Origin: a virus
Lineage: Duplodnaviria; Heunggongvirae; Uroviricota; Caudoviricetes
Reading direction: 5' to 3' (one strand)
DNA length: 64,000 nt
IMG/VR virus record: IMGVR_UViG_2660238580_000002
Below the pieces are notes generated by a model. That model saw only the letters and a program-made list of their open reading frames with translations. It had not been told where the DNA came from and made no database searches. This document shows, piece by piece, positions 20,158 through 39,045 of the stretch. Numbering within the stretch: the first letter of the stretch is position 1; every line of letters begins with the position of its first letter. The position numbers and the translations under genes were made by a program.

Positions 20158-20946
20158 TTACGCCAGTTGTACGGACACGAACGCATCAGGGTCAGCCAGC
20201 AGCATCAGCGGTGCTGACTGAATCATGGTGAACTCACGCGCCGGATCGCCGGTGGTCACCCAGTTTTTCGGGTAACGGGCAGAGGCGTTAATGCCTTCGC
20301 GCTGTGCGTCCGCATCCTGAATGCAGCCATAGGTGCGCAGACCGCGTGCCTGAGTGTTCCCCAGCACCATCGTGTTGTCCGGCAGGAAGTTCTTTTTGAC
20401 GCCGTTTTCCACGTACTGTCCGGAATACACGACGATGGCCACATCGCCATACATCCCCTTATAGGACACCGCTTTGCCCAGGTCTTTCACCGCTGTCTCC
20501 AGCTCGGAATTAGAGCCACGACGGGTATCCAGCTTCTCCTTGACGGCTTTGAAGGAACGGAACAGCGCCCAGCCTTTCGGATCGAACACGATGATATTCA
20601 CCACACCGCTGGCGTTCAGCGCGTAGGCTTCGATATCGTCGGTCGGGTCATACGTGGACTTGTCACGCTTGCTCCACTCCGTGCCGCCGGACTGCGTGAT
20701 GTTATTCTCCTCACTGCGGCCCATATCCACCTCAACCGGATCGAAGGCTTCACCGGTCATGGTGTATTTGCCCTTAAGCACGGCAGAAACTGCCTGCATC
20801 TCTTCGACCTGAGCAATGGCCAGCTCTTCGTCACGCATGTTCTGCATGATGATGCGACGGCGGCGGTAAGCCGGGTCCGCCAGATTCTGCGGATCTTCAT
20901 CCGGCAGGCGACGCAGGGTCATCTGCGGATTCACTTCATGCTTCGG
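20158..20946 (-). pseudogene. E: major capsid protein E, 3' fragment (codons ~82-341) cut off from its 5' part by island insertion
   Basis: Reads PKHEVNPQMTLRRLPDEDPQ...PDAFVSVQLA with no start codon; in-frame stop immediately upstream of PKH. Confidence 0.92.
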
Positions 20947-20948
20947 CT
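20939..20948. repeat. 10-bp direct repeat TGCTTCGGCT (island junction, putative att core)
   Basis: Identical 10-mer at 33376-33385; lies in E codons Lys-Pro-Lys-His. Confidence 0.8.
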
Positions 20949-21082
20949 ACATGAGTCAAATATGAAAGGATGTGAATGATTTGATTACGTTTTAGCTATA
21001 GAATTGAAATGGAAAATCCTTGAATGCAATACAACGTGCAATACATGGATGAAAACCATCACTCATTTAACAAGAGGAATCT

Positions 21083-21988
21083 ATGCGCTCACCCAACAGA
21101 ATGCATGAACGCTCAACATTTTATAAGTATATGTCGTTGAATACCGCGAAGATTGTTCTTGATTCATGCAGCCTTAGATGGAGTTCTCCGGTCCTATTTA
21201 ATGACCCTTTTGATGTTCCAAGAGAAGTTATGCCTGGTATTAACGAAATTAATATTGGCAAAGCTTTAGCCCGCAAGTTAATAGCGGAGTTGATTACCCC
21301 CAGAGAAGACATACAAAATTTAAACCCTAGAATTAGAACAATGCTAAGTGATTTCCAAAAGTCATTTCCTTTAGGCATACCCGCAGGATTAATTGAAAGA
21401 TTTCAAGAAATGGTAAACATTCCACCAGTTGGGATTGGCGCTCCTGCGGCAATACAAGAAATGAAAGATGTCTGGCGAGGAATGCTTAATAACAGAAGGA
21501 TTTTGTGTTTATCTGAGAGCCCTATAATCACTCCTATGTGGAATCACTATGCCGATAAATATAAAGGTATAGTTATCGAATTTGATTGTGTAGACTTTCT
21601 GGATAGCGCTTGGTTAATAGCCAAACCTATGAAATACACAGATAAAATGCCTCTAACTCACACTGCTGAAGGGATGGCCGAGTTGCTTTTCATGCCAGAC
21701 AATAAGTCAATTGAATATATCAATAATGAGATAATATTCATAAAAACAGAAGAATGGGCATATGAAAGAGAGTGGAGAATTTCAACCTACGCTAGGCCAA
21801 ATAGCACTGGTCAATATAGCGACTTAAAATTTCACCCTTTTGAGTTAAAATCTGTAATACTTGGTCCTCTTTTTGATGCCAGCGAGTTCGATGAAGTCGC
21901 ATCACTAGTTAAGATGTATCCAAGAGCGAAATTATTTAAAAGTTCATTTGGGAACGACAGAAAAATATCCATAGTACCACTACCTTAA
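21083..21988 (+). CDS. DUF2971-family protein
   Basis: 301 aa; N-terminal FYKYMSLNTAKIVLDSCSLRWSSPVLFNDPFD signature; GAGGA RBS upstream. Confidence 0.65.
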   Translation: MRSPNRMHERSTFYKYMSLNTAKIVLDSCSLRWSSPVLFNDPFDVPREVMPGINEINIGKALARKLIAELITPREDIQNLNPRIRTMLSDFQKSFPLGIPAGLIERFQEMVNIPPVGIGAPAAIQEMKDVWRGMLNNRRILCLSESPIITPMWNHYADKYKGIVIEFDCVDFLDSAWLIAKPMKYTDKMPLTHTAEGMAELLFMPDNKSIEYINNEIIFIKTEEWAYEREWRISTYARPNSTGQYSDLKFHPFELKSVILGPLFDASEFDEVASLVKMYPRAKLFKSSFGNDRKISIVPLP

Positions 21989-22094
21989 AAGGTCAAATGC
22001 TTTTGACAAATAAAATCTATCGCCAGTTTTACTGGCGACTTTTAAGCAACAAAGAACCACCTAAGCACTCTTCCTACCTATGGTTTCATTTGTT

Positions 22095-22646
22095 TTAACT
22101 TCGCTGATTATCCTTGATATACCTTTCAGCCATATCTGGAATGTTATCTGAGATCTGGTAAGCTCGAATAAATGCTTTACTGACCTCCATCTTAATGAAG
22201 TCCTGATACCGTTTTTCCATGCCAGGAAACTGTCGACAGATCGCAAGTGGAAGACTATCAATGATTGCTCCAACTTCCCCAGTTAATTTCGACAAGGCAT
22301 AAGTCGCAAATGCAGTGTCAATTACCTCACCTGTTTCGCTGGCATTCTTCAGTTCCTGTGCGTCGGCCTGCGCACGCGTAAGTCGATGGCGTTCGTACTC
22401 AATAGTCCCTGGCTGGAGATCTGCCTCGCTGGCCTGGCGCAGTTCTTCAACCTCCCGGCGCAGCTTTTCGTTCTCAATTTCAGCATCCCTTTCGGCATAC
22501 CATTTTATGACGGCGGCAGAGTCATAAAGCACCTCATTACCCTTGTCACCGCCTCGCAGAACGGGCATTCCCTGCTCCTGCTAGTTCTGAATGGTACGGA
22601 TACTCGCACCGAAAATGTCAGCCAGCTGCTTTTTGTTGGCTTCCAT
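22095..22646 (-). pseudogene. terminase small subunit Nu1-like gene with in-frame amber codon at codon 22
   Basis: MEANKKQLADIFGASIRTIQN-TAG-QEQGMPVL...; first ~100 aa near-identical to prophage Nu1, C-terminal ~80 aa divergent; TAG at 22581-22583 where helper has TGG. Confidence 0.8.
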
Positions 22647-22699
22647 TGTTCATTCCACGGACAAAACCAGAGAAAGGAAACGACAGAGGCCAAAAAGCC

Positions 22700-22860
22700 T
22701 GTTTTTAGCACCTGTCGTTTCCTTTCTTTTTAGGGGATGTTTTTAATAAAAACATTAAGTTACGGCGAAGAAGAACGGAAACGCCTTAAACAGGAAAATT
22801 TTCACAAATAGCGAAAACCCGCGCGCCTGACGCCCCGTAGCCTGTCAGATCGCCGGAAAG
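22700..22860 (-). other. island cos-like region (cosB-like, variant cosN 22824-22835, partial cosQ-side)
   Basis: Aligns base-by-base with prophage cos (39600-39790); 5 of 12 cosN positions differ (GGGCGTCAGGCG vs GGGCGGCGACCT). Confidence 0.7.
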
Positions 22861-22891
22861 GACCCGCCAGCCAGAGCGGGCCCTAATTTCA

Positions 22892-23275
22892 TCAACCAAT
22901 CAGCTTATAGCGACCATCCCGTGCATTGCGGCGTACACGCTCAATCTTGAGGCATAGCGCCGCATCTGGCTTTTTTGGGACAGGTACGCGGCAATATTCA
23001 GAAGCGCGAGGAATATTATTTATCCAGTCGATCACTTCACTTAAATACCAGGCCTTACGCCCTTCCGTAACCTGCACACGCTCCGGGAACTCTCCACTAG
23101 CCTCAAGGTTTAGCAGTGTACGCCGACTCAGGGTTGTAATTTCCATCACCTGATTCATATCAACAAGGCGCTCGCTTAAACACATTTTGTCAGCGATAGC
23201 TTTTAATTCCTCTACAGCTGGATTCGGGTACATCATTTCGGCAATTGGCTTAAGGTCATTGTAATCATTCTGCAT
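22892..23275 (-). CDS. AlpA/excisionase-family HTH protein
   Basis: 127-aa ORF; C-terminal half ITTLSRRTLLNLEASGEFPERVQVTEGRKAWYLSEVIDWI resembles AlpA-type HTH; true start may be internal. Confidence 0.5.
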   Translation of the reverse strand: MQNDYNDLKPIAEMMYPNPAVEELKAIADKMCLSERLVDMNQVMEITTLSRRTLLNLEASGEFPERVQVTEGRKAWYLSEVIDWINNIPRASEYCRVPVPKKPDAALCLKIERVRRNARDGRYKLIG

Positions 23276-23286
23276 TGTATCCCCCT

Positions 23287-23628
23287 TTACACACGAGCCA
23301 GCGGCTGAACAGAAATACCTGAGCCAACAAACGCTGCAATCTTTACTGACAGTTCTTTTACAGACTCAGGCCAGTTCAGAGCATCAACATTTAAGACACC
23401 TGTCTTATAGACCTGAGCCCGTGTTTTTTTCGCGGTGTCGATTTGTACAGCGGAAACATAAACCGCTTTACCTACGCTCGAACCATCCCATACCACCAGT
23501 GCACCTGTTGCATCTTCCTGCATCAGTGGCGTAAATGCAGGAATTACCCCTTTATTAGCTGAAAATATCCCCAGCGTAGTCACCAGTGCTTCAGTGCCAG
23601 CCATGAGTTCAGTGTAATGAGTAGCCAT
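23287..23628 (-). CDS. head decoration protein D homolog (island-encoded)
   Basis: 113 aa; shares PA-TPLM...VAWDG/VVWDG...YK-G...WPE...AF-G with lambda gpD. Confidence 0.6.
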   Translation of the reverse strand: MATHYTELMAGTEALVTTLGIFSANKGVIPAFTPLMQEDATGALVVWDGSSVGKAVYVSAVQIDTAKKTRAQVYKTGVLNVDALNWPESVKELSVKIAAFVGSGISVQPLARV

Positions 23629-23637
23629 TGCTCCCCC

Positions 23638-24678
23638 TTAGCCAATGCGAACGGTAACAAAACGATTGATGCGGGCCGGTATTGGCTGTGGTGCTGAATG
23701 TGTCTGCACATATTCAATAGCCGGATCACCAGGTACAATATAGTTTTTCGGTGCAAGTTCGGCTTTAGTCAGCCCCATTCGGATTAGCTCCGGATCCTGA
23801 ATACCGCCATAGGCGACAATCCCCTGAAGAGCCGTATTGCCAAGCACCATCAAATCAGGATCAAGGAAATGTTTTTCTGTTCCGTCCTCGTCGGTATAAC
23901 GCCCGCTGTAAACAACAATCGCAACATCGCCCATATACCCTTTAAAACTCACCGAATCACCAAGGTCTTTAAGGGCCGTTTCCAGTTCGGAATTAGAACC
24001 ACGACGGGTATCCAAAGCCTCTTTTATCGCTCTGAATGAACGGTATTTCTTCCATACATTACCACCCATAATGATGATATTAGTGACGCCCTCACTAAAT
24101 TCTGCGTAGCTCTCAATATCATCATTTGGATCAAAAGTTTCTTTATCCTTACTTGACCACTCAGTACCGCCAGACTGAGTGATGATATTTTGTGGTTTTA
24201 TATTCCAGTCCAGCTCATAACGTTCAATACCATCGCCCTCAATGATATTTTTCCCCGTTGTGATTGCCTGAACAGCAAGCCATTCAATACGTGCACGAAT
24301 AGCTTTAGCTTGATTTACAATCGCCTGTTTAACTTTAATATTACGCGCCCCAAAAGCATTGTATTGCTCAGGTGATACACCAGCAGGGCGCACAGCTAAC
24401 TTATTTGGATCAATGCTGCTTTTCGGCTTCATATAGCCTGGACGAATTGTTTTTGATTCGTACCCTTCGTCACGTGAAACTTTACTACCCACCATAGGAG
24501 AACAAAACGCTGCAATTGGGATATTTGGATCGTCGATTGTATCAAGAATAATATCGCGCGATTCAAACATTACCGAGCGAGTAAAAAACAAACTGGTAAA
24601 CAACGCATTTAGTTGTTTTTGTACATCTACAGCATTAACCACCTGTACAAGCTGGGTAGGCGAATATAAATCAACCAT
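23638..24678 (-). CDS. major capsid protein E homolog (island-encoded, diverged)
   Basis: 347 aa from MVDLYSPTQL (AAAGAGGA RBS); C-terminus ITQSGGTEWS...DTRRGSNSELETA...GDVAIVVYSG aligns with lambda gpE. Confidence 0.8.
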   Translation of the reverse strand: MVDLYSPTQLVQVVNAVDVQKQLNALFTSLFFTRSVMFESRDIILDTIDDPNIPIAAFCSPMVGSKVSRDEGYESKTIRPGYMKPKSSIDPNKLAVRPAGVSPEQYNAFGARNIKVKQAIVNQAKAIRARIEWLAVQAITTGKNIIEGDGIERYELDWNIKPQNIITQSGGTEWSSKDKETFDPNDDIESYAEFSEGVTNIIIMGGNVWKKYRSFRAIKEALDTRRGSNSELETALKDLGDSVSFKGYMGDVAIVVYSGRYTDEDGTEKHFLDPDLMVLGNTALQGIVAYGGIQDPELIRMGLTKAELAPKNYIVPGDPAIEYVQTHSAPQPIPARINRFVTVRIG

Positions 24679-24963
24679 ACACATCCTCTTTGCATTCATT
24701 AAAAATAATTGTGGATATATGCTATCACCAATATTTGTCATGCGAATACATGCAACCGAGTGCAATGTTGTATAAAGTTTTGGGATGACAACTTCAGCGC
24801 GGATAATTAGTGTTAATATATTCACTCCCTTTGGTCGGGATTTATGTAGCATGCCGGAAAATTTATTTTTTCCGGCCTTTTTTATTGGCAATATTTAAAA
24901 CGGAATATCATCTCCCCATTGCTCATTATCTCCCACTGGTGGATGGCTTCCTTGCTGATCTGC

Positions 24964-25344
24964 CTATTGTTTTGCTCTGTTCAGTGCGTCAGTAGCCTGA
25001 CCCTGTTGACCTTTTTTGCCGCCCGGTCGCACCGTTCGCGCACTGATTACGCTGTCTGCGATAACCTGCCAGCCCTGCCGCGTTTCACCGTTCTGTCCAG
25101 TCCACTGGCTCACCTGCATGTTACCCGCCACGCTCAGGAGTTCGCCTTTGTGATGCTTTGCCAGCGCATCGGCTTGTCTGCCAAACGCCAGCACAGATAA
25201 CCACATCGTCGCCGTTCCGTCATCTGCCTGGCTGCATGGCAAAGATACCGCCATCCGTGCCAGTGTCATGGGTGTTCCCTTGCTGGTATGTTTTACCTGT
25301 GGGTCGTCCACCAGCCGCCCGTAAGCTGCTATTTGCGCCGTCAT
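24964..25344 (-). CDS. single-stranded DNA-binding protein (OB-fold, SSB-like)
   Basis: 126 aa with SSB-like pattern GRLVDDPQV...WLSVLAFGRQAD...KGELLSVAGNMQVSQW. Confidence 0.6.
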   Translation of the reverse strand: MTAQIAAYGRLVDDPQVKHTSKGTPMTLARMAVSLPCSQADDGTATMWLSVLAFGRQADALAKHHKGELLSVAGNMQVSQWTGQNGETRQGWQVIADSVISARTVRPGGKKGQQGQATDALNRAKQ

Positions 25345-25355
25345 GCTGCCTGCTC

Positions 25356-25598
25356 TCAGGACTTAATATTGATGGTTGTCACTTCCTCCGCTTCGGCAAT
25401 CTCCCGTTCGGTCAGCGTGGCAAAGTTTGCAGCCGCCGTTGTCATGAATGCGCTTATCAGTTCGGGATGTGCTTTCGCGTATCCTTCCCCGGCGTTGCGG
25501 TCTATTGCCTTAATCGCCACCCTTAGCCAGTGTTCAGCCATATCAAGGGCGCGGTAATGTGGCTTTATATGTTTGTTCAGTTTTCCTGATGTGTGCAT
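25356..25598 (-). CDS. hypothetical protein
   Basis: 80-aa ORF immediately downstream of iteron region. Confidence 0.4.
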   Translation of the reverse strand: MHTSGKLNKHIKPHYRALDMAEHWLRVAIKAIDRNAGEGYAKAHPELISAFMTTAAANFATLTEREIAEAEEVTTINIKS

Positions 25599-25643
25599 TT
25601 TTATTTTTACCCCCTCGTTTAAAAAGTTTTTTGTGCACCACCA

Positions 25644-25876
25644 CCTTGTCTACCTTGTCTACCTGATTAGTTATCAGGCCAGTAATGGCGCGGGTTTCAG
25701 AGAGGTAGACAGCCCCAAATAGCTGTCTACCTCATCTCTACCCGTCTCCTTACCTGTCTACAAAAATGGGTAGATAAGGTAGATAACAGGTAGACAGTGA
25801 AAAATAGTTATCTACCTGCATTAATACATTGAAATAAAAGTATTTTATTTCAGTCAGGTAGACAAGGTAGATAACC
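25644..25876. repeat. iteron cluster (GGTAGACA/GGTAGATA and complement TGTCTACC), putative island replication origin
   Basis: More than 10 copies of an 8-11 bp motif in both orientations, AT-rich, directly upstream of primase gene. Confidence 0.75.
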
Positions 25877-25887
25877 ATTGCCATTTT

Positions 25888-27639
25888 TTATAAAAACGCA
25901 TCGCAATCATCAGTAGTCGTTGCGTTGGTCTGAGTGACTCCCTTAACTTTTCGCGTAATATATTCATATCCGTAAACTTTCGCCGCTGACCTCATAGCCT
26001 TTCCGAACTCATTCACGCTCAAACATTTCCCCTTTCCTGTATATGCCATGAAGGCCATATAGACACGGTAAAGGCTGTTTCTGGTCGTGTACTTCACGGT
26101 GTCACCACCACCGCCCATCATTAGCCCACGAGCTTCCTCCAGAAACTCCAGCGCCGCGCAAAGCTCAACAACCGGATCCGTTTGCTGCTTTATTGCCAGA
26201 GCTTCATCACCGTCACGCTGTTCCAGTAATAAAGCCCGTGCCTTTTCAGGGTCAGCAAAATTAGCCAGCAAGCGGCGGATAATTACGGGGATTTCTGCCG
26301 CTATCTTTTCCGGTAATTCCTTGTCTTTTTCGTCCTCCCTTACAATGTTGTCGAACCGGAAAATCACCCGACGGCGTGACACACCTCCGGCCCGTTCGGT
26401 AAAGATCATCGGGTCGTTATTGGTTGCCAGTACCACCGCCCTTATTATCGTCGTGAATCGCTTCTCATATTTCGGGTTAATTTCAACGGGATCGCCTCCC
26501 GTGATTTTCTTGATGCCCGTGCCTTCCCCCGTATATTTCGGCTGATCGGCAAGGACGATAAGACGACTCCCGACAACCTGCGCGCGCCCTCCTGCATCAT
26601 CGAGTGATGTCATCTCTGCGCTTACGGTGTTCTGTTTGCCAGCAAGCAGGGTGGCAATATGAGTAAATGTGCTCTTTCCGCTTCCCCCGTCTCCGGTGGC
26701 CTCAATGAACATCTGCCAGTCGTAGCGGTTCGCCATAATCATGTATAACGCGGCACATATACGCATCATCTTGCGCGGGTCTTTTCCTGCAGCATGTTCA
26801 AGCCATTTATGGAAATTTGGCGCATTATCGCGGATGTTTTCCCCTGCTACTGGTGGCGTGTACTCAATACCATTGTGCGTGGTGCTCCAGTGCTCCGGCG
26901 AGTGCGGAGAAAATTCCCCCGTTTTCAGATTAAGCACACCATTAGTGAACGGTAGCAAATCACCGGACGGCTCCCCCATGGGGGCGGCAATAACTTTTAA
27001 CGCTTCCACGGCGTTATTGATTACGCGCTTGCTGAACGTGGCCCTGTGCTCTGAATAGATCGCCACCATTTCGCGGCTCAGCTCCATTGTGCTGACCGGA
27101 CACCATACCCCGCCGCGCCATACGTGGACGATTTCACTTTCTGCATGAACACAAACACCATCAAAGCGATCGGCAAGTAGTTGTGCCCGCTCACTGTCTG
27201 CCATCTGTGAAAGTTGCGCCTTTTGCTTCGTCGGAAGATTAAGCACCAGGCTTTCCCCACGCTCGCATTCCTCTTTGAGTCGCGGCAACTGGTCGGATAA
27301 ATCCACTGGGCTGGTGTCAGTAATCCCCGCGTATTCGTGTACGGTCTTCACTCCAGCCACAGCCAGTAACGTAACAATCTGCGTCATGCTGTGCTCTGTG
27401 ATATGTCCTGCGCGGTAAACACGCACACACTGACGATCTTCATCAATGATCCGGTAATCGGTGATGTTTTTCAGTTGCTCATCAGCCAACACGACAGGCG
27501 GCACATCGTCGGCGGCAATATGTTTACCCGCCCATTCCTGCCACTCTTTCGCATGGCTCCACGCATCACTACCTGCAAAGATGATTACCTCTGTCAGTCT
27601 GTCGCGTGGCTGTTTTTTTAAGTTCGGTGCCAGTTTCAT
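25888..27639 (-). CDS. P4-family primase/helicase (Pri-Rep-like replication protein)
   Basis: 583 aa; Walker A GDGGSGKST in C-terminal NTPase domain; adjacent to iterons. Confidence 0.75.
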   Translation of the reverse strand: MKLAPNLKKQPRDRLTEVIIFAGSDAWSHAKEWQEWAGKHIAADDVPPVVLADEQLKNITDYRIIDEDRQCVRVYRAGHITEHSMTQIVTLLAVAGVKTVHEYAGITDTSPVDLSDQLPRLKEECERGESLVLNLPTKQKAQLSQMADSERAQLLADRFDGVCVHAESEIVHVWRGGVWCPVSTMELSREMVAIYSEHRATFSKRVINNAVEALKVIAAPMGEPSGDLLPFTNGVLNLKTGEFSPHSPEHWSTTHNGIEYTPPVAGENIRDNAPNFHKWLEHAAGKDPRKMMRICAALYMIMANRYDWQMFIEATGDGGSGKSTFTHIATLLAGKQNTVSAEMTSLDDAGGRAQVVGSRLIVLADQPKYTGEGTGIKKITGGDPVEINPKYEKRFTTIIRAVVLATNNDPMIFTERAGGVSRRRVIFRFDNIVREDEKDKELPEKIAAEIPVIIRRLLANFADPEKARALLLEQRDGDEALAIKQQTDPVVELCAALEFLEEARGLMMGGGGDTVKYTTRNSLYRVYMAFMAYTGKGKCLSVNEFGKAMRSAAKVYGYEYITRKVKGVTQTNATTTDDCDAFL

Positions 27640-27935
27640 TTTTTGCCCCTGAATGCGTTAATCATGCTTTTCATTTTCTGGATGTTTCCCCGCGCTTTTT
27701 CCCTGCTGATGGGCTTACTGCGGGGTGCGGCATATACCAGGGAAAAATCACGCCGGAACTGATAAACAGGCATCACGCAGTCATAGCTATACCCCTCACG
27801 ACGGTAAGTGATGCGCCGTTCTGCCACGCCTTTAATCGTTACCGTGCCGCCGTATTTATCGCGGTAAATATCGCCGTTCATAAATTCAGGCCGAGCGGGG
27901 CCGCTGGCAATAAAGCCAGAATTTTTCATTTCCAT
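27636..27935 (-). CDS. hypothetical protein
   Basis: 99-aa ORF, stop overlaps primase start. Confidence 0.4.
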   Translation of the reverse strand: MEMKNSGFIASGPARPEFMNGDIYRDKYGGTVTIKGVAERRITYRREGYSYDCVMPVYQFRRDFSLVYAAPRSKPISREKARGNIQKMKSMINAFRGKK

Positions 27936-27952
27936 ATTATTTATTCCTCGAC

Positions 27953-28174
27953 TTAACTCGACTTATTTGATAGCAGGGCACTATTTATTGCGTCATTGAG
28001 TTTTTCTGCTGCTTCATCAATAAGTGACAACAGGCCATAAGCAATATTTGCATCTTCATTGTCATTTATGCAATCAAGCCACATATTTAATATTGCTTTT
28101 GCTGAATTATTTAAAGTTAATGAACTTTCTGCACATGCTAACAATTTAAAAAAGACTTCCCGTTCTGTATTCAT
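27953..28174 (-). CDS. hypothetical protein
   Basis: 73-aa ORF in island early region. Confidence 0.35.
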   Translation of the reverse strand: MNTEREVFFKLLACAESSLTLNNSAKAILNMWLDCINDNEDANIAYGLLSLIDEAAEKLNDAINSALLSNKSS

Positions 28175-28366
28175 TTAATCCCCCACCAGCTTACTTTCTT
28201 CCTCAATCAAAAAACTAGCGACACTTCCCGAAAGACGCGCCAGTAGGCTCGCCAGTGCGGATATATCAGCATCTGTAATTTTGTTCGGGTATACCTCAAG
28301 AAGGCGGCAAATAATTTCTGTCTGGTGCGCACGTTCAGCGGCTTCGTGTAATGTGATTTCCTGCAT
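28175..28366 (-). CDS. hypothetical protein
   Basis: 63-aa ORF in island early region. Confidence 0.35.
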   Translation of the reverse strand: MQEITLHEAAERAHQTEIICRLLEVYPNKITDADISALASLLARLSGSVASFLIEEESKLVGD

Positions 28367-28600
28367 TAATGCACCTCTTTTAATTCATACACTGCTGAAA
28401 TAATGACTTGTGATAAGCCATATTCTGATGATTCGCTTCTCACCGCAGCAATAGCCGTCTGAACATTAACAGCCTTCACGTTCTGAGCGATACCAATTGT
28501 GTGGCCTAGTGGGTTAACCGCACGAGCAAATACACGGAAGGTTTTAAGCACGGCATACTGAACCGCCCCGGGTTTCCTGGAGAGTGTTTTATCTGTGAAC

Positions 28601-29491
28601 TCAGGCTGCCAGATCATCGTTTCCGATGGAAGCATAATAAGCTTTTTCTGCTTCTGCCGGAGGAGTATGGCCCAGCCTTTCCAGCAATCGTCGATTGTTA
28701 TACCAGTCCACCCACGTGAGTGTGGCCAGTTCCACTTCTGCACGGTTTTTCCAGCTCTTACGGTGTATTACCTCCGCTTTGTAAAGACCATTGATGCTCT
28801 CCGCCATCGCGTTGTCATACGAGTCGCCTGTACTTCCTGTTGATGCCAGTAATCCGGCTTCCTTAAGCCGCTGTGTGTAGGCCAGCGATACATACTGAGA
28901 ACCTTTATCACTGTGATGGACCGTGCCGGACGGTCGACGGGCCCATAACGCCTGCTCCAGTGCATCCAGCACGAATGTCGTTTCCATGGACGATGAGACC
29001 CGCCACCCCACGATGTATCCGGCAAACACATCAATGATGAACGCCACATAGACGAAGCCCCGCCATGTGCTGACGTAAGTAAAATCAGCCACCCACAGCT
29101 GGTCAGGTCGTTCTGCCACGAACTGACGGTTTACGCGGTCGCCTGCGGCAACGGCTTTCCGGCTGATGGTCGTACGGACCTTTTTACCCCGGAGAACACC
29201 GGCAAGTCCCATAACCGCCATGAGACGTGCCACAGTGCATCTGGCCACTCTGATACCTTCCCGTAACAACTGACGCCAGACTTTACGCACACCGTATACC
29301 TTGTGATTTTCATCGTATACGCGCTGTATCTCTTTCTTCAGCCAGTCATCGCGCTGCGCACGGGCACTGCGTTTATCCGGATGATGTCGCTGTTGCTGAC
29401 AGTGGTAATACGTTGACGGGGCAATATGCAGTTCGCTGCATAGCGGTCCGACCCCGTACTGCTCACGCAGCTTATCCAGCAGTGGCATCAT
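28601..29491 (-). CDS. IS629 transposase OrfB (DDE integrase core)
   Basis: 296 aa, identical to copy at 61767-62657. Confidence 0.9.
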
Positions 29492-29814
29492 TTTTTCCAG
29501 AGGCGGTCGAACTCCGCCTTCGCAAAATAAGCGGAAGCCTGGCGAAGGATATCGTTACTGCGGCGCAGTTCACGATTTTCACGTTCCAGCTCTTTCAGAC
29601 GCTGACGTTCAGCGGTGGTGAGCCCTCCATCACCGCCCCCGGTATCCCGCTCATGCTGGCGAACCCAGACACGCAGAGTCTCCGGCGTACAGCCAATCTT
29701 TGGAGCAATGGAACAAATTGTCGCCCATTGTGAGTCATATTCGCTCTGACTTTCCAGAACCATACGGACTGCCCGTTGACGGACTTCGGGGGAAAAACGA
29801 GTATTTTTAGTCAT
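29488..29814 (-). CDS. IS629 transposase OrfA (HTH)
   Basis: 108 aa [30 protein letters not shown]. Confidence 0.9.
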
Positions 29815-29868
29815 CCTGTTTACCTCTTTCTCAGGAAGTTTAGTCTCCAGGATTCCCGGGGCGGTTCA

Positions 29869-30060
29869 TACCTCCTGACGAATACGGGCGGCAAATATCA
29901 TCACGCAGCCAGTTGGGGATTGTTGGCGGGCTTCCTGTTCGCTGGCGGCCTCGATGTGTATTACGCGTGGTTGTGCGGTGCTCAGGGCGATAAAACGCCA
30001 GATGTATTTATTCAGGTTGTGCGGGTCCCGCCCTTGCGGGTGTGTGGTATGATTTCTCAT
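29869..30060 (-). CDS. Icd-like cell division inhibitor family protein, 3' end truncated by IS629
   Basis: YIWRFIALSTAQPRVIHIEAASEQEARQQS...IFAARI resembles Icd-like small proteins; reading past the IS predicts loss of only 3 codons. Confidence 0.45.
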
Positions 30061-30198
30061 AGCTATCTCGATACTGTTGCTATCGTTGGTGGTTAGAAGC
30101 CCGTTGGTGTTCCTAGCGCCTTCGGGCTTTGCTTTTTTAAGTGCCTCCGTGTTAAGGTGGTCACCTAACAGTAAAAAGGCTAATTCAATAGGTGGTCA

Positions 30199-30391
30199 CT
30201 TGTCAACAATCAAACGCGATAAAAGTCCTAAGGGTGATGGGCAATCTCCACAATTCAGAATGCGAATTTCTCCAGAGCTAAAAGAGCAATTCGACAAAGA
30301 AGCGCAGAGCGACGGCATAAGCCTAGCCAACTGGCTTAAAGAATTAGGGCGCAAAGAGCTGCTACGGCGCGGTATTGAACCAAAAGGATAA
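30199..30391 (+). CDS. ribbon-helix-helix (Arc/CopG-like) DNA-binding protein
   Basis: C-terminal ISPELKEQFDKEAQSDGISLANWLKELGRKELL RHH pattern; start uncertain (TTG at 30199 with AGGTGG SD, or ATG at 30260). Confidence 0.5.
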
Positions 30392-30418
30392 GAGTAATTG
30401 AAGTCAAGGAGCTAACAC

Positions 30419-30775
30419 ATGAAATACGAATTCTTCGCAACAAGTAGCAGTAGTTTGGATGTATACATAGTCACTGTATCAAACGATTCTAGCTCGCTAA
30501 TCATGACTTGCAATTGTCCAGCAGGAAGTAAAGGTATTCTATGTAGACACCGTAAAGCTTTAATTACCGGAAAAATCCGTGGTATATTCACTCCCCCAAG
30601 AAGGAATAATCCCGAAAAGTTACAAGAAGCTATAAATTTAATAACCACATATGGCATAGATAAAACATTAAAGTTGTACACTGATGAGTTAGAACGAGCA
30701 GAACAGACTTGGATAAGTGTTCGCGATAATTTGAGAGCAATGATAAACGCTCTTGTTGAACCACCTAAATATTGA
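30419..30775 (+). CDS. small SWIM-type zinc-finger protein
   Basis: 118 aa with CNCPAGSKGILCRH (CxC...CxH); AAGGAG RBS upstream. Confidence 0.5.
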   Translation: MKYEFFATSSSSLDVYIVTVSNDSSSLIMTCNCPAGSKGILCRHRKALITGKIRGIFTPPRRNNPEKLQEAINLITTYGIDKTLKLYTDELERAEQTWISVRDNLRAMINALVEPPKY

Positions 30776-30906
30776 ACTGTTCACATTGCCTATCAGTCGA
30801 CAACCTCGTATTCTGATTAAGGCTAACTATATACTCACATTGGCGACCAATTCTGGTCGCCTTTATCCACCATTTTTATAACATCATAGATTAAAAGTGT
30901 TAATCC

Positions 30907-31737
30907 TTACCCCCTGAATGGAATTGATGAGGATTTAATTTCCACTGAACTAAATCCTTTTGAATCCAAGAACATTTTTATACCAGCCTCAATGAAATCA
31001 TAATCGTTTGTCGGGCCAATAGTAATACTTTTAATTGGTAACTTCCTATGATCTTTATTACCAATGATGATATAAGGGATGACACCATTATTATTTATTC
31101 TGAATTGCACATCTGGTATTAGTATGCGCGGAGTAAATACCAATCTAAATTCATTTTCTTCGATAAAACTAGGATGTTTAAAAAATGGGATGTATTTAGA
31201 TATAAATTGATACGTAGAGGCCATTGTTACAAAATGATCATTCTTTTCTTTAATATTAATACCATTACAAGAAAAAAACGCCCCCAACTCCTTACTCATC
31301 TTAGTAACATCGTTATTATTTGAATATATAACATCATGTGCAACACAATTTAAATAAATATTTTGAGAAAAGCTCACAAGTTCATCCGCATCAAACTCAA
31401 TGCAAACACCCTGTTTATTTCCGTAACCTCTCCACTGACTTAACTTATCGTTTTCCTTACAAAAAGAGATGCTATAAACATGTTTATCAATCCCTTTTTC
31501 TTTTTGTAACCTCCCTTTCTCATACATGTCAAGAGACTTGAGCAAAATAGTTTTCTTATCTTTTGGAATGATATTGTCATCAACTATTTTAATTGTATTT
31601 CGAAAGCATTCACATCCATGGTTAGACTCCTCTTTATCATTTAAGAAATATATGTTTGTAGCCCATAAAGAATTAGAGTCTAATATACCTTTCAAACCAA
31701 AAAGATCTGTATAATGAAATATAGCCACAATGCCCAC
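30907..31737 (-). CDS. DUF2971-like protein
   Basis: 276 aa; N-terminal IFHYTDLFGLKGILDSNSLWATNIYFLNDKEE resembles DUF2971 signature. Confidence 0.5.
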   Translation of the reverse strand: MGIVAIFHYTDLFGLKGILDSNSLWATNIYFLNDKEESNHGCECFRNTIKIVDDNIIPKDKKTILLKSLDMYEKGRLQKEKGIDKHVYSISFCKENDKLSQWRGYGNKQGVCIEFDADELVSFSQNIYLNCVAHDVIYSNNNDVTKMSKELGAFFSCNGINIKEKNDHFVTMASTYQFISKYIPFFKHPSFIEENEFRLVFTPRILIPDVQFRINNNGVIPYIIIGNKDHRKLPIKSITIGPTNDYDFIEAGIKMFLDSKGFSSVEIKSSSIPFRG

Positions 31738-31744
31738 CTAATAG

Positions 31745-31975
31745 TTAAGTTGTTTCCCACTCACCTCGAATCCATGCCTGCACTTCTGAAAGACGATATG
31801 CAACAGCAGTGGAACCAATCTTGATCCGCTTAGGAAATTTTCCTTCCTTCTCCAGCTTCCAGCGTGTGCTGTTCGCAAGAGTGGTTAGCTCCCGACATTC
31901 TTTCTCACGGATCATTCGGTCAATGTTAGGAATGTACTCCAGACCCTTTTTATCAACAATTGCCATTTTTTTCAT
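31745..31975 (-). CDS. alpA: AlpA-family transcriptional regulator
   Basis: 76 aa; TTLANSTRWKLEKEGKFPKRIKIGSTAVAYRLSEVQAWI AlpA-type HTH; immediately downstream of int. Confidence 0.75.
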   Translation of the reverse strand: MKKMAIVDKKGLEYIPNIDRMIREKECRELTTLANSTRWKLEKEGKFPKRIKIGSTAVAYRLSEVQAWIRGEWETT

Positions 31976-31976
31976 G

Positions 31977-33212
31977 TTAACCAGCCTTTTGTTTGAGGAT
32001 TGTCACTTTTGAATCAGCACCTGCGATGCTATTGAGATATGTAGTCCAGAGTTCCAGAGCATCCAGTTTTTTAGCCATAAACTTACTCCGGTTGTAAACA
32101 CCTGCCACGCCAGGTAGCGCATGGCCTAACAGTTGTTCTACTACATAAAATTCAACACCGAGATCACTTAGATGAGTAGATAGCGTTCTTCTAAGGTCGT
32201 GTAGTGACCATTGTTTTTCATGGCCCAAACGTTTACCGATTTTCCCCCCAATCTTGCTTACGCTTTCTCTAATTCGCAGACTTCCCAGCACATAACCAGT
32301 ATGTTTTGTCTCTTCGTGAACATCCGTTACCCACTGTCGTAGAATTTCAGGTACTGGTCTGACGATTTCAACACCGGTTTTTGAGTGTTCTTTTGGTACA
32401 GTCCAAACCCAACTTTCTAGATCCCATTCGCTCCATTCTGATAATCGGGCTTCACTCATTCGACATCCAAATACTGTACAAAGCACAAACATTTTTCGCG
32501 TGTATTCAGACATTAGTTTTAAATCAGGCTCGACAAAAATTGCCTTCCAGAGCTGGCCCAGTTCGGCTTCATCCAGAACCCGATCCCGCTTACCTGCAAT
32601 CTGCCCCACATCACTCATGCGCAAATCCTTTAAAGCATCACACGTCGCGTACTGGCGTACCCGACAAAAACGAAGAGCTAATTTAGTGTCAGAAAAAACA
32701 TACGCCGCCATAACTGGTGCATTACGTTTAATTCGGTCAAAACAGTCCAGCCATTCATATAGGTGAGTGTCATTTACGGGCAAATGACCGATATAGGGAA
32801 AGATATGCTTTCGAAATCTGCCAAGCGTTACAGCATGAGTTTTACGACGCACCTTACAGTAATTTTCATACCAGTAATTTAGTGCATCCTCCACTGTGAC
32901 CGGCTTTAAGCGTTCTTCAGCCTGAATCTTAATCTGGATACGCGGATCACGTTTGTCAGCCAACCAACCACGGCACTCGTCGCGCTTTTCTCTTGCCTGT
33001 TTGAGTGACATATCAGGATATTTACCCAACGTTAGCCAGACCGGAGCAGCCCGGCCACCTGCTAACCTGTAGAAGAAAACAAAGCTCACAGCCCCCTTAG
33101 TACTCACACGAATAGAAAGCCCCTTTCCATCAGCAATGGTGATCTGCTTTTCTCTGGGTTTCCCCAGATATCCTTTAAGCGCTTTGTCGCTCAGTTTGTT
33201 CTCGCCAGCCAT
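31977..33212 (-). CDS. int: P4-type tyrosine integrase
   Basis: Start MAGENKL; DUF4102-like arm domain; catalytic residues R (CRMSEARL), HDLRRT, Y (VAGVYNRS); adjacent to junction repeat. Confidence 0.9.
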   Translation of the reverse strand: MAGENKLSDKALKGYLGKPREKQITIADGKGLSIRVSTKGAVSFVFFYRLAGGRAAPVWLTLGKYPDMSLKQAREKRDECRGWLADKRDPRIQIKIQAEERLKPVTVEDALNYWYENYCKVRRKTHAVTLGRFRKHIFPYIGHLPVNDTHLYEWLDCFDRIKRNAPVMAAYVFSDTKLALRFCRVRQYATCDALKDLRMSDVGQIAGKRDRVLDEAELGQLWKAIFVEPDLKLMSEYTRKMFVLCTVFGCRMSEARLSEWSEWDLESWVWTVPKEHSKTGVEIVRPVPEILRQWVTDVHEETKHTGYVLGSLRIRESVSKIGGKIGKRLGHEKQWSLHDLRRTLSTHLSDLGVEFYVVEQLLGHALPGVAGVYNRSKFMAKKLDALELWTTYLNSIAGADSKVTILKQKAG

Positions 33213-33344
33213 TTTTAGCCCCAAAAAGCAATACAAGCTGCAATACAGAGATGATTGCAACACACAGATAACGAGGAAAATCCAGTGAAAGCGCCAGATA
33301 ATCTTATTCTTTATTATCAAAGAATTAAGTGTAAAAACCAGCAA

Positions 33345-33620
33345 CTACACGAAAGCCTCAGAAAGCCATGCTAAGTGCTTCGGCTTGACATATCCCGGCG
33401 TAAATTCAGAGGTGGAGCCGCCACGGGAACGGATAACCTCACCGGAAACAATCGGCGAAACGTACAGCGCCATGTTTACCAGTCCCGGAATTTGTGAGAG
33501 ATAGACTTTCTCCGTGGTGAAGGGATAGCTCTCACGGAAAAAGAGACACAGAAACAGCGGATCAAACTTAAATTTCTGCTCATTTGCCGCCAGCAGTTGG
33601 GCGGTTGTGTACATCGACAT
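33345..33620 (-). pseudogene. E: major capsid protein E, 5' fragment (codons 1-~83) fused to 9 island-derived codons
   Basis: MSMYTTAQLLAANEQKFKFDPLFL...EFTPGYVKPKH then LAWLSEAFV-stop from island sequence. Confidence 0.92.
33376..33385. repeat. 10-bp direct repeat TGCTTCGGCT (island junction, putative att core)
   Basis: Identical to 20939-20948; overlaps E codons Lys-Pro-Lys-His of the 5' fragment. Confidence 0.8.
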
Positions 33621-33675
33621 AAAAAAATCCCGTAAAAAAAGCCGCACAGGCGGCCTTTAGTGATGAAGGGTAAAG

Positions 33676-37123: not shown

Positions 37124-39045
37124 TCATCCTCTCCGGATAAGGCACGGGCGTAATCTGCCAGTGTTTTCTTGTTGGTTGCTGCACCATCCTCTTCCTGCAG
37201 GCTCGCCAGCAGTGCACTGAGATCCAGCTGCCAGCGGGAAATACTGATGCGCAGCGCCGCCAGCGCATAAACGAAGCAGTCGAGTGCCTCATTGCGTCGC
37301 TTTTTGCTGTCCCACAGTATTTTTTTCCTGCCATCCACCCATTTTTCGACCTGCTCTTCAGCAGTCAGCTGCTGCGCTTCGGTCAGATCAAAAATATCCG
37401 GGTTATTCGGGAAGTGAACGGCACCGGGAAGCGGTTCATCCCCTTCCGGCGTCAGTGTGAAGCGGTTATAAATCTGCTCTTTCGCGGTATCCGTACCGAT
37501 TTCGGTAAGGTAAACCCCGTTTTTGTTTCGCTTACGTGGCATGCTGGCCACCGGCTTTCCGTAGACGGATGCCCCTTTAATGGGGATCACCCGGAACAGC
37601 CCATGTTTTTTCGAGCGTTCATACACAATGGTCGGGTCAATCCCGCCAGTATCCCAGCAGATACGGGATACCGACATTTCTGCACCATTCCGGCGGGTAT
37701 AGGTTTTATTGATGGCCTCATCCACACGCAGCAGCGTCTGTTCATCGTCGTGGCGACCCATAATAATCTGCCGGTCAATCAGCCAGCTTTCCTCACCCGG
37801 CCCCCATCCCCATACGCGCATTTCGTAGCGGTCCAGCTGGGAGTCGATACCGGCGGTCAGGTAAGCCACACGGTCAGGAACGGGCGCTGAATAATGCTCT
37901 TTCCGCTCCGCCATCACCTCAGCATCCGGACGTTCGCCGATTTTCGCTTCCCATGTCTCACCGAGCGTGGTGTTCACGAAGGTTTTACGTTTTCCCGTAT
38001 CCCCTTTCGTCTTCATCCAGTCTTTGACAATCTGCACCCAGGTGGTGAACGGGCTGTACGCCGTCCAGATGTGAAAGGTCACACTGTCCGGCGGCTCAAT
38101 CTCTTCACCGGATGACGAAAACCAGAGAATGCCATCACGGGTCCAGATCCCGGTCTTTTCGCAGATATAACGGGCATCAGTAAAGTCCAGCTCCTGCTGG
38201 CGGATGACGCAGGCATTATGCTCGCAGAGATAAAACACGCTGGAGGGGTCATCCGGCGTCCATTTGAGGCCAAACGGCGTCTCTTTGTCGCCAAATTTAA
38301 GATACTGCTCCTCCCCGCAGTGCGGGCAGGCAACATGAAAACGCATAAAATGCAGGGATTCACTGGCTGCACGCTCAATCTGGCAGGTGCCTCTCACTTT
38401 GGGCGTGGAGCCACGGATGGACTTTGGCCAGACCGAGCCTTCAATACGTTTGTCGCCAAGGAACGTCGGAGAGCCTTCCTGTTCAATATCCTCATCAAAG
38501 GCAGCAAGTTCATCATAACCCGCCACATCCACCGACTTTTCACGGTAGTTTTTTGCCGCTTTACCGCCCAGGCACCAGAAGCCACGACCATTGGAAAAAC
38601 GCTTCATAGTGAGCGTGTTATCCCGGTGCTTTTTGCCATACCACGGAGCCAGCGCCAGCAGCGACGGAATATCGCGGATGGTCGGCTCAACGTGGGTTTT
38701 CATAAAGTTCTCGGCATCACCATCCGTCGGCAACCAGATAAGGGTGTTGCGCTGCTTATGCTCTATAAAGTAGGCATAAACACCCAGCAGCATTTTGGAA
38801 TAACCGACACGGGCAGACTTCACCACATTCACCTCACGGATGTAGTCGCTGCCCATCGCATTCATGATGGCCCGCTGAAAGGGCAGTGTTTCCCAGCGCC
38901 CTTCCTGGTATGCGGATTCTTTCGGGAGATAGTAATTAGCATCCGCCCATTCAACGGCGGTCTGTGGCTCCGGCCTGAACAGTGAGCGAAGCCCGGCGCG
39001 GACAAAATGCCGCAGCCTGTTAACCTGACTGTTCGATATATTCAC
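37120..39045 (-). CDS. A: terminase large subunit A
   Basis: 641 aa; 1926 nt equals lambda A. Confidence 0.93.

Follow-up and report, generated by a model that had tools for sequence, protein, structure and literature searches.

What does a gene for a 301-aa protein do at the very edge of a phage satellite, next to a capsid gene that the satellite has split? The gene lies in a window of 64,000 nucleotides (the whole stretch of viral DNA analysed here, numbered from its first letter), and an earlier note had described it as a DUF2971-family gene in a cargo position, with anti-phage or anti-helper activity as candidate roles. [quoted passage not shown] Integration in lambda-type gene E, int, AlpA, a primase and E-like and D-like genes of its own are all shared with 11capE, and the att core TGCTTCGGCT corresponds to the 10-bp block of identity described for that island (PMC10111431). 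The features that frame the gene are as follows.

20158..20946, minus strand: 3' fragment of the helper major capsid gene E, split by the satellite (translation; labelled 'major capsid protein, missing N-terminus' in RefSeq at the identical locus)
20939..20948, no strand: att core TGCTTCGGCT marking the island end nearest to DUF2971, within the KPKH codons of gene E (10-bp exact direct repeat)
21083..21988, plus strand: DUF2971 / PDC-S31 ORF of 301 aa, its product predicted to fold like an ART (ATG-to-stop ORF)
22095..22646, minus strand: Nu1-like small-terminase gene, a pseudogene here with W22 changed to TAG (translation; RefSeq 'internal stop')
30419..30775, plus strand: small SWIM-finger ORF
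33376..33385, no strand: att core TGCTTCGGCT on the integrase side of the island (exact repeat of 20939..20948)

Fragments of E are found on both island flanks and the island core is co-oriented with the helper late genes, all other recognisable core genes (int, primase, capsid, decoration, AlpA and Nu1-like) being on the minus strand. The DUF2971 gene thus has the edge position that had been described, abutting the E 3' fragment, and its orientation is opposite to that of the packaging genes, as it converges on the Nu1-like gene. The Nu1-like protein is near-identical to helper Nu1 over its N-terminal ~100 aa and divergent over its C-terminal ~80 aa, and intact 183-aa copies are carried by two related loci (L007 and L010). 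This satellite copy is decaying, with stop codons in the Nu1-like and ssb genes and an IS3-family insertion.

The DUF2971 ORF itself, found exactly at the positions given in the earlier note, is an intact, real gene under purifying selection. Compared with an 88%-identical Enterobacter orthologue, dN/dS is 0.14 (dS 0.43) overall and 0.18 in the first 50 codons, values that indicate a real, selected gene and a correct long start. RefSeq/PGAP annotation starts the gene at M50 (21230; 252 aa), which is 49 codons short and removes the conserved N-terminal motif; we reject this start on the basis of the dN/dS over codons 1–50, the conserved N-terminus (homologues are conserved from residue 1 onward) and a Shine–Dalgarno-like sequence in front of the longer ORF. 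Cloning of the 252-aa version would probably yield an inactive protein, as the N-terminal motif is missing from it. The GC content of the gene is 37.7%, compared with 57.8% in the E fragment. A promoter scan upstream of the ORF returned no convincing sigma-70 site, and by eye only a weak TAGAAT (20999–21004) with a poor -35 was seen. A hairpin separates the gene from its convergent neighbour; it is terminator-like on the minus strand and is followed by only 4 T on the plus strand.

21072..21078, plus strand: AAGAGGA, Shine–Dalgarno-like, 4 nt 5' of the ATG at 21083 (sequence reading; favours the 301-aa start)
22019..22039, no strand: GC-rich hairpin ATCGCCAGT-TTT-ACTGGCGAC in the gap where the DUF2971 and Nu1-like genes converge (sequence)

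Family membership is well supported, as the check proposed in the earlier note gave a Pfam DUF2971 (PF11185) match with an E-value of 1e-9 and 40 bits against a gathering cut-off of 22 bits, covering residues 152–233 and all positions (1–89) of the 89-position model, which is also matched by all 58 aligned homologues. The FYKY...LFNDPFD motif that had been called the N-terminal signature of DUF2971 is present (F13-Y14-K15-Y16 and L38-F39-N40-D41-P42-F43-D44) and family-wide, being invariant or nearly so across the 58 homologues and across a set of 126 sequences (the query plus 125 cluster-50% representatives), but it falls outside the Pfam model, so the label is only loosely right. Four of the five PADLOC PDC-S31 HMMs match at E ≤ 1e-10, the best being PDLC04990 (E 2e-32, residues 9–289), followed by PDLC04994, 04991 and 04992, and the protein also matches phrog_1762 (E 1e-68). 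The family is large, with 5,926 cluster-50% representatives retrieved by phmmer at E ≤ 1e-3 and 119 at E ≤ 1e-30. A search of NCBIfam gave no match, Pfam searches at E ≤ 10 with all 58 homologues gave no ART family besides DUF2971, and a PDB-chain sequence search with the 58-sequence profile gave only spurious helical-repeat matches (E ≥ 0.9). The island also holds a second DUF2971 gene, a member of a sister clade. The conserved segments of the protein are listed below.

21119..21130, plus strand: codons F13-Y14-K15-Y16, putative ART motif I strand (hhalign, conservation, predicted strand 12–17)
21194..21214, plus strand: codons L38–D44 (LFNDPFD), conserved loop after strand 2 (conservation, hhalign)
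21539..21550, plus strand: codons W153-N-H-Y156, start of the Pfam DUF2971 match, with Y156 as putative motif II (conservation, Pfam)
21764..21772, plus strand: codons E228-R229-E230, ExE, putative ART motif III with the catalytic Glu (conservation, secondary structure)

Profile–profile alignment of this clade with the second DUF2971 clade (hhalign) was significant (Prob 96.9%, E 1.8e-10), with significance reached only profile against profile (E 0.21 for the profile against a single paralogue sequence), and it aligned the N-terminal motif of this clade with the HY(T/D)...ND motif of the second one. In this alignment K15 and Y16 correspond to H7 and Y8, N40/D41 to the invariant N32/D33, Y156 to Y104 and E228-x-E230 to E193-x-E195 of the sister clade. 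W153, Y156 and E230 are conserved in 126 of 126 sequences and E228 in 123 of 126, and the ExE motif stands at the beginning of a predicted strand (230–236). K15, a Lys in all 117 ungapped clade sequences, stands where the H-Y-(T/D) signature of the sister clade has a near-invariant His.

An AlphaFold2 model of the protein has a pLDDT of 94.5 and a pTM of 0.86. The modelled fold resembles the toxins DarT, TreX, TreTu and Scabin, and the core is predicted to be an ADP-ribosyltransferase (ART) fold, with large helical insertions at residues ~55–137 and ~195–228; Foldseek searches against the PDB and against BFVD viral structures gave nothing significant. Published bioinformatics places DUF2971 in the H-Y-E clade of ARTs near DarT and AbiGi, reports poor conservation of the motif I His within DUF2971, and describes the invariant Tyr and the ExE as hallmarks of transferase-competent ARTs (PMC12522546). 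Following that work, we infer that Y156 and E228-x-E230 are motifs II and III, which would give the protein both the Tyr and the Glu of the ART superfamily. Motif I differs: the His or Arg that H-Y-E ARTs have on strand 1 is a Lys throughout the clade, and NAD+ chemistry could therefore be altered or abolished. Members of the sister clade have sub-threshold Pfam matches to Tox-ART-HYD1 (17/48) and AbiGi (4/48, best E 4.8e-6). As AbiGi is described by Pfam as an antitoxin, an ART-like Abi protein need not be the part that kills. The earlier statement that the function is unknown can be narrowed to an ART-like predicted fold (PMC12522546).

The position of the gene provides a second line of evidence. 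In a comparison with 13 related loci, similarity between islands that share this backbone breaks off exactly over a short module at the end of the island.

20983..22660, no strand: polymorphic cargo module of ~1.7 kb, here Nu1-like plus DUF2971 (BLAST break-points)

The cargo position proposed in the earlier note is borne out by what fills this slot in sister islands, namely an AbiJ/Abi_C protein, a GmrSD_N + HEPN pair matching NsnA/PD-T4-2, or unrelated genes, including several alleles encoding proteins without known domain (311, 339 and 438 aa). The backbone was found in 403 of 5426 complete E. coli genomes, in which the slot alleles sampled were counted 33, 31, 20 and 12 times. The DUF2971 allele accounts for 33 of the ~403 backbone-bearing genomes (~8%), indicating that the gene is dispensable for the satellite, and a core satellite function was rejected on this basis. 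In both E. coli and Enterobacter it is always accompanied by a full-length Nu1-like gene, and an Enterobacter HE-PICI carries the 88%-identical orthologue at the corresponding place. In the published description of HE-PICIs (PMC10111431) four zones are distinguished and defence cargo is not a topic; the documentation of a polymorphic slot lying between cos and att comes from the present analysis. PICIs as such are known carriers of immune systems (PMC11364771). Fillol-Salom et al. (Cell, 2022) reportedly described such immune cargo.

The genomic contexts of homologues are mixed. Neighbours of homologues at 55–75% identity include genes for HEPN_AbiV, YjhX, CbtA, HipA and integrases, which favours a defence role, and homologues at 43–75% identity also occur outside satellites. 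Some distant homologues stand among housekeeping genes, which counts against a defence reading. None of the seven contexts compared revealed a conserved partner gene, and no ORF lies between the att site and the DUF2971 gene or between the latter and the Nu1-like gene. An Rfam scan near the gene gave no significant match and none near the gathering score, and a tandem-repeat scan for a ToxI-like array found none; together these two results give no sign of an RNA antitoxin. The gene is carried by commensal, environmental and animal E. coli.

Among known systems, DarT of DarTG is an ssDNA thymidine ADP-ribosyltransferase. The DUF2971 gene differs in having no DarG macrodomain partner, and its product in having large helical insertions, a Lys instead of His in motif I and an ExE motif; the protein and its 58 homologues have no Pfam match to DarT (DUF4433) at E ≤ 10, and membership of DarTG was rejected for want of both the partner and a sequence-level match. 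Tpt1/KptA, an RNA 2'-phosphotransferase, serves in housekeeping or repair, binds RNA through a separate lobe and is not known to act in defence; its identity to the DUF2971 protein is only 14%, with no sequence-level match. AbiG is a lactococcal abortive-infection system, to which (as to Tox-ART-HYD1) the likeness consists of the weak matches from the sister DUF2971 clade only, via its N-terminal H-Y-(T/D). In the present protein motif I is K-Y-M, there is no AbiGii partner, and neither the protein nor its 58 homologues match AbiGi in Pfam, so that assignment to AbiG (AbiGi + AbiGii) failed. PDC-S31 corresponds to the present gene through direct HMM matches and a single-gene architecture. PADLOC PDC systems are candidates from genomic association, not validated, and a literature search found no papers mentioning PDC-S31. 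Experimental precedent comes from Aristaios, a 316-aa lactococcal DUF2971 protein encoded on Lactococcus plasmid pUCCL641 that acts as a single-gene, Abi-type antiphage system (PMC11381338). Aristaios resembles the present protein in being a single DUF2971 protein of ~300 aa with an ART-like predicted fold, the link between them being the shared Pfam family alone, and differs in belonging to another phylum and in being carried by a plasmid rather than a satellite. Sequence similarity between the two is probably low, as a tblastn search of plasmids gave, among the matches listed, only Gram-negative ones at ≤30% identity and none from Lactococcus.

Most likely, then, the DUF2971 gene is an ordinary representative of an already known class of phage-defence candidates that consist of one gene each. 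The specific form of this reading that we put at somewhat better than even is defence cargo of an HE-PICI, consisting of a stand-alone ART-fold protein of ~300 aa that is NAD+-dependent and probably abortive in its antiphage action; for this protein, NAD+ use, target, trigger, abortive outcome and antiphage phenotype are what we infer. Among the alternatives, a factor for the satellite's own life cycle or against the helper, modifying helper or satellite DNA or helper proteins such as the capsid or terminase to favour satellite packaging or reduce helper yield, is one that we regard as improbable. It would fit the location of the gene beside the packaging module (cos and the Nu1-like, E-like and D-like genes), its constant association with a full-length Nu1-like gene and the frequency of interference with helpers among satellites (PMC10111431). 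However, the rarity of the allele among backbone-bearing genomes, the homologues outside satellites, the generic defence genes in the same slot of sister islands and the antisense orientation of the gene to late transcription all argue against it, as does the intact state of the gene in a window where its Nu1-like partner is a pseudogene. An anti-helper role is less likely than defence against other phages. Action as a secreted virulence effector that ADP-ribosylates host-cell targets, as has been suggested for certain DUF2971 proteins of Legionella, is very improbable given the lack of any secretion-related neighbour, the presence of the gene in commensal, environmental and animal E. coli and its location in a phage-satellite slot shared with Abi and restriction-like genes.

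Two further alternatives concern what the protein does to the cell or to its substrate. The predicted resemblance to DarT, TreX, TreTu and Scabin, and the location of homologues beside the TA toxins YjhX, CbtA and HipA, would suit a toxin, an addiction module or a general stress toxin that stabilises the island or arrests growth with no specific antiphage role, but every kind of antitoxin candidate considered is absent (adjacent ORF, macrodomain, Rfam match, tandem repeat, conserved neighbour), an unopposed constitutive toxin would not stay intact at a dN/dS of 0.14, and Aristaios was tolerated on a high-copy vector (PMC11381338), leaving such a role only a slim chance. The other alternative is that the ART fold carries different chemistry, such as Tpt1/KptA-like 2'-phosphate transfer or another NAD+-dependent modification of RNA ends, or, given the His-to-Lys change in motif I, serves as an inactive sensor or scaffold. 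We consider this unlikely, as the invariant Tyr and ExE typify transferase-competent ARTs (PMC12522546) and such strict conservation would not be expected of a dead enzyme. An activity like that of Tpt1 would depend on NAD+ all the same and would fit a defence role, making this alternative a matter of chemistry more than of biology.

If the gene is defence cargo, its expression in the lysogen would be driven by signals of its own, antisense to the late operon of satellite and helper, and the protein would stay inactive until infection by an unrelated phage. On infection, NAD+ would be spent to ADP-ribosylate a target, most plausibly a nucleic acid (as for DarT and Tpt1) and otherwise an essential protein, and this modification would bring replication of the phage to a halt, with the infected cell probably sacrificed in the process (abortive infection). 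A more far-reaching proposal, which we hold to be fairly unlikely, is that the K-Y-ExE DUF2971 clade is a distinct NAD+-dependent, nucleic-acid-modifying enzyme, differing from DarT in target or chemistry, that is possibly wired in cis in satellites and possibly has a Nu1-like partner. Because the gene is antisense to the antiterminated late transcript of the helper, helper induction may silence it by transcriptional interference and so spare the helper, while foreign phages may still face an active defence. The protein may also act with the co-inherited chimeric Nu1-like protein.

This comparison shows that the region from cos to the att site of HE-PICIs is a cargo slot with highly polymorphic content. 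Several of its alleles have no known domain, which makes it a cheap place to seek new defence genes. If the defence reading is true, the gene would be a Gram-negative, satellite-borne addition to Aristaios, the sole validated DUF2971 defence system, and would offer a tractable E. coli model for DUF2971/PDC-S31 in which to ask what an antitoxin-less ART-like protein modifies and what triggers it.

The gene at the island edge was confirmed: it runs from ATG to stop as a 301-aa open reading frame on the + strand and carries the motifs quoted for it in an earlier note, F13-Y14-K15-Y16 and L38-F39-N40-D41-P42-F43-D44.

21072–21078, +, Shine–Dalgarno-like AAGAGGA, ending 4 nt before the ATG (read from the sequence)
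21083–21988, +, DUF2971 gene (the target), 301 aa

In RefSeq/PGAP, the identical gene of strain LST200A is started at M50 (21230; 252 aa), as it is by other gene callers. This start is almost certainly wrong, because it loses the most conserved block, comprising the N-terminal strand and the NDPFD loop; conservation in an alignment of 58 relatives begins at residue 1 (MRSPNRxH..F[FY]KY..LRWSSPxLFNDPFDVPRE), and homology, the Shine–Dalgarno sequence and dN/dS favour the 301-aa form. Comparison with the 88%-identical orthologue of Enterobacter sichuanensis gave a dN/dS of 0.14 for the whole gene (dS 0.43) and 0.18 for codons 1–50, showing that the gene is under purifying selection. Its GC content is 37.7%, against 57.8% in the adjoining fragment of the capsid gene E. 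A promoter scan found no clear promoter upstream, a repeat scan no tandem repeats nearby, and no ORF separates the target from the att site or from the Nu1-like gene; an Rfam scan around the gene returned no significant match, with only far-sub-threshold miRNA-family matches ~700 bp off.

By profile matching, the protein is a member of both Pfam DUF2971 and the PADLOC ‘phage defence candidate’ family PDC-S31 (best model E 2e-32, residues 9–289). The DUF2971 assignment of the earlier note held when the Pfam check was run (PF11185, 40 bits, E 1e-9; cut-off 22 bits); the N-terminal motif named there as the family signature is conserved throughout the family but lies outside the 89-position Pfam model, which falls on residues 152–233 and not on the N-terminus. 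In PHROGs the protein belongs to phrog_1762, of unknown function (E 1e-68), while an NCBIfam search gave no match. We found 479 relatives among 5.8 billion proteins, nearly all of 295–305 aa, and an exhaustive phmmer search retrieved 5,926 cluster-50% representatives at E≤1e-3, with 119 at E≤1e-30.

An AlphaFold2 model built from the 58-sequence alignment (mean pLDDT 94.5, pTM 0.86) shows a predicted ART-like fold, with strand 12–17, a helix, strand 30–34 and a large helical insertion (~55–137), followed by strands 138–144 and 163–168, a second helical insertion (~195–228), strand 230–236 and a C-terminal alpha/beta part. The closest folds are Tpt1 (top match) and DarT, with further matches to the Rhs ART toxins TreX and TreTu, SopF, KptA, Scabin, CARDS toxin, ArtA and PARP15. 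Aligning the profile of the target clade with that of its sister clade, the relatives of the island's second DUF2971 gene, paired 234 columns (hhalign, Prob 96.9%, E 1.8e-10); conservation was counted over the query and 125 near-full-length cluster-50% representatives (126 sequences).

Target residues, their sister-clade counterparts and their conservation
K15, sister H7: 117/117 ungapped
Y16, sister Y8: 114/117 ungapped
R32: 122/126
N40-D41, sister N32-D33: D41 126/126
W153, sister W101: 126/126
Y156, sister Y104: 126/126
K221, sister K186: 126/126
E228-x-E230, sister E193-x-E195: E228 123/126, E230 126/126
R232, sister R197: 126/126

Below the Pfam threshold, the sister clade matches Tox-ART-HYD1 (17/48, via an N-terminal H-Y-T/D motif) and AbiGi (4/48, best E 4.8e-6). 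A bioinformatic survey assigned DUF2971 to the ART H-Y-E clade near DarT, AbiGi and Tox-ART-HYD1; in the family as surveyed there, the His of motif I is poorly conserved, the motif II Tyr is strict, motif III reads ExE and the helical inserts are large (PMC12522546). The hhalign pairing and the sister-clade matches agree with this placement, and the residue counts put the target in a stable clade where Lys replaces the motif I His and the Tyr and both Glu are kept.

The surrounding island is a known element: it corresponds to the published helper-embedded PICI (HE-PICI) of 11capE type, which enters gene E of a lambdoid helper at a 10-bp identity block and encodes a capsid homologue of its own (PMC10111431). 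Both junctions (att cores, 20939–20948 and 33376–33385) carry the sequence TGCTTCGGCT as a 10-bp direct repeat, and the ~12.4-kb element that they bound (20939–33385) is inserted at the KPKH codons of the lambda-type major capsid gene E of its helper prophage. The element contains int, an HTH gene, the second DUF2971 gene, a SWIM-finger gene, Icd-like, DUF4222 and D5_N/DUF5906 primase genes, ssb, E-like capsid, D-like decoration, AlpA, the cos region and the Nu1-like gene.

~33345–33647, gene E 5' fragment, next to the integrase
31977–33344, tyrosine integrase (int)
29488–29814, −, IS3-family orfA
28601–29491, −, IS3-family orfB
23638–24891, −, satellite's own E-like gene
23287–23628, −, satellite's own D-like gene

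The second DUF2971 gene (30907–31737, −), near the integrase end, shares 21% identity with the target across the core (Pfam E 9.7e-12) and has the canonical F-H-Y-T-D motif I, the Tox-ART-HYD1 and AbiGi matches in its clade being weak; many sister islands have it (its cluster counts 398 sequences) and some lack it, and with it this one satellite has two ART-like genes. Beside it, a SWIM zinc-finger ORF (30419–30775) lies on the + strand of an otherwise minus-strand satellite.

The island is 99.98% identical to that of LST200A except for an IS3-family insertion (~28559–29866, with the primase-side genes on one side and the SWIM-finger gene on the other), which the LST200A island lacks. Together with a stop in the Nu1-like gene (22095–22646, −; W22 to TAG) and an internal stop in ssb (~24964–25413, −), annotated by RefSeq in the identical LST200A copy, this insertion suggests that the satellite copy is decaying while the DUF2971 ORF remains intact. 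The Nu1-like protein is chimeric, with residues 1–~100 nearly identical to helper Nu1 (39020–39565, −) and an unrelated C-terminal ~80 aa. A palindromic stretch just upstream of its start (22665–22732), the expected place of cos or cosB, lies within a segment ~95% identical to helper cos-nu1 (helper copies L002:18839–19369 and L003:18951–19481), and Rfam gave only spurious sub-threshold miRNA-family matches there.

PICIs have reportedly been described as immune-system carriers by Fillol-Salom et al. in 2022. Comparison of the window with 13 loci sharing an AlpA and decoration backbone located a polymorphic cargo slot: homology extends down to about 22661–22718 and returns at ~20982, within the island at ~35 bp from the att core, and the exchanged 1.7-kb segment holds, in the window, the Nu1-like gene and DUF2971. 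The cargo position proposed in the earlier note is thus borne out, sister islands swapping this segment, in some cases for AbiJ-like or NsnA/PD-T4-2-like genes.

Slot alleles in the compared loci, among others
L002: Abi_C/AbiJ-like protein
L004: GmrSD_N + HEPN pair, matching NsnA and PD-T4-2_A/B
L003, L005: 438-aa AF_1680 protein (L005:5369–6685)
Alleles without known domain: 339-aa and 311-aa proteins
A further allele: 228-aa protein + DUF3892 protein

The backbone was found in 403 of 5426 complete E. coli genomes, and counts for four of the alleles were 33 genomes for DUF2971, 31 for DUF262 (GmrSD_N) + HEPN, 20 for the 311-aa protein and 12 for the 438-aa AF_1680 protein. All 33 DUF2971 copies are chromosomal and at least 99% identical, 32 in the same context. 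With so many alleles at one site, the slot has a defence-hotspot pattern; most of its recognised defence genes, and DUF2971 too, are oriented against island late transcription. The slot proteins of L008, L006, L005, L013 and L009 (311 aa, 339 aa, 438 aa, a 141 + 164 aa pair, and 228 aa + DUF3892, respectively) have no PADLOC match and little or no Pfam annotation, and are candidate uncharacterised defence genes. Slot coordinates are L008:5810–6745, L006:5369–6388, L005:5369–6685, L013:5810–6744 and L009:5648–6814. The Nu1-like gene is part of the variable module and goes with DUF2971 in both E. coli and Enterobacter; in the other alleles cos is retained and the Nu1-like gene body is missing. 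A passage of PMC11364771 presents PICIs as carrying immune systems, and the HE-PICI paper does not discuss the slot cargo (PMC10111431).

In an Enterobacter HE-PICI (L014), the 88%-identical orthologue occupies the same position and is again accompanied by a Nu1-like gene. Elsewhere, a 55%-identical homologue near proBA has HEPN_AbiV, the toxin YjhX and an integrase as neighbours, a 62%-identical one in the same chromosomal region is flanked by the toxin CbtA and part of an integrase, a 75%-identical one adjoins HipA_C, a 46%-identical one is near an Ogr/Delta gene, and a 43%-identical Opitutaceae homologue sits amid metabolic genes. Plasmid and phage homologues are distant (≤30% identity among the matches listed), and no neighbour gene is conserved in seven genomic contexts of the target and its homologues.

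The target is thus a stand-alone gene in a defence-type cargo slot, its product keeps conserved residues that are candidates for catalysis, and we lean slightly towards reading it as a defence protein that acts by NAD+-dependent ADP-ribosylation and aborts infection. A defence role as such is fairly probable, and the ADP-ribosylation chemistry is an evenly balanced proposition. The protein would be expressed in the lysogen, inactive until a foreign phage infects, and would then ADP-ribosylate its substrate using NAD+, aborting the infection. Our preferred guess for that substrate is nucleic acid, since nucleic acids are what the closest folds, Tpt1 and DarT, act on, and many basic residues are conserved, R32, K221 and R232 clade-wide; the two helical insertions might serve auto-inhibition or sensing. 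Its working is predicted to be most like that of DarT and of Aristaios, a 316-aa lactococcal DUF2971 protein forming a single-gene system that stops phages after DNA injection with an abortive-infection phenotype, and whose ART fold was inferred by its authors (PMC11381338). Membership of DarTG or AbiG was rejected, the target having no partner gene and no sequence-level match to either.

Several points count against a defensive ART: the Lys in motif I could change the chemistry, AbiGi is described in Pfam as an antitoxin, housekeeping genes surround some of the distant homologues, and no clear promoter was found. The Lys substitution, with Tpt1 as top fold match, leaves some room for an ART scaffold with different or absent chemistry, which we consider rather unlikely. 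An anti-helper or packaging role is improbable, because only ~8% of islands contain the target and its family has members outside satellites; equally improbable is a plain toxin or addiction module, for which there is no antitoxin candidate, and a secreted effector, finding no support in gene context, is very improbable indeed.

The modest new points are the definition of the Lys-for-His clade, the corrected start codon and the polymorphic defence slot recorded here for capE HE-PICIs. It is unlikely, but conceivable, that the clade has a distinct NAD+-dependent activity on nucleic acid combined with an antisense placement that silences the target on helper induction; lying antisense in the helper's antiterminated late operon, the gene may be shut off upon induction, and the helper would thereby be spared.
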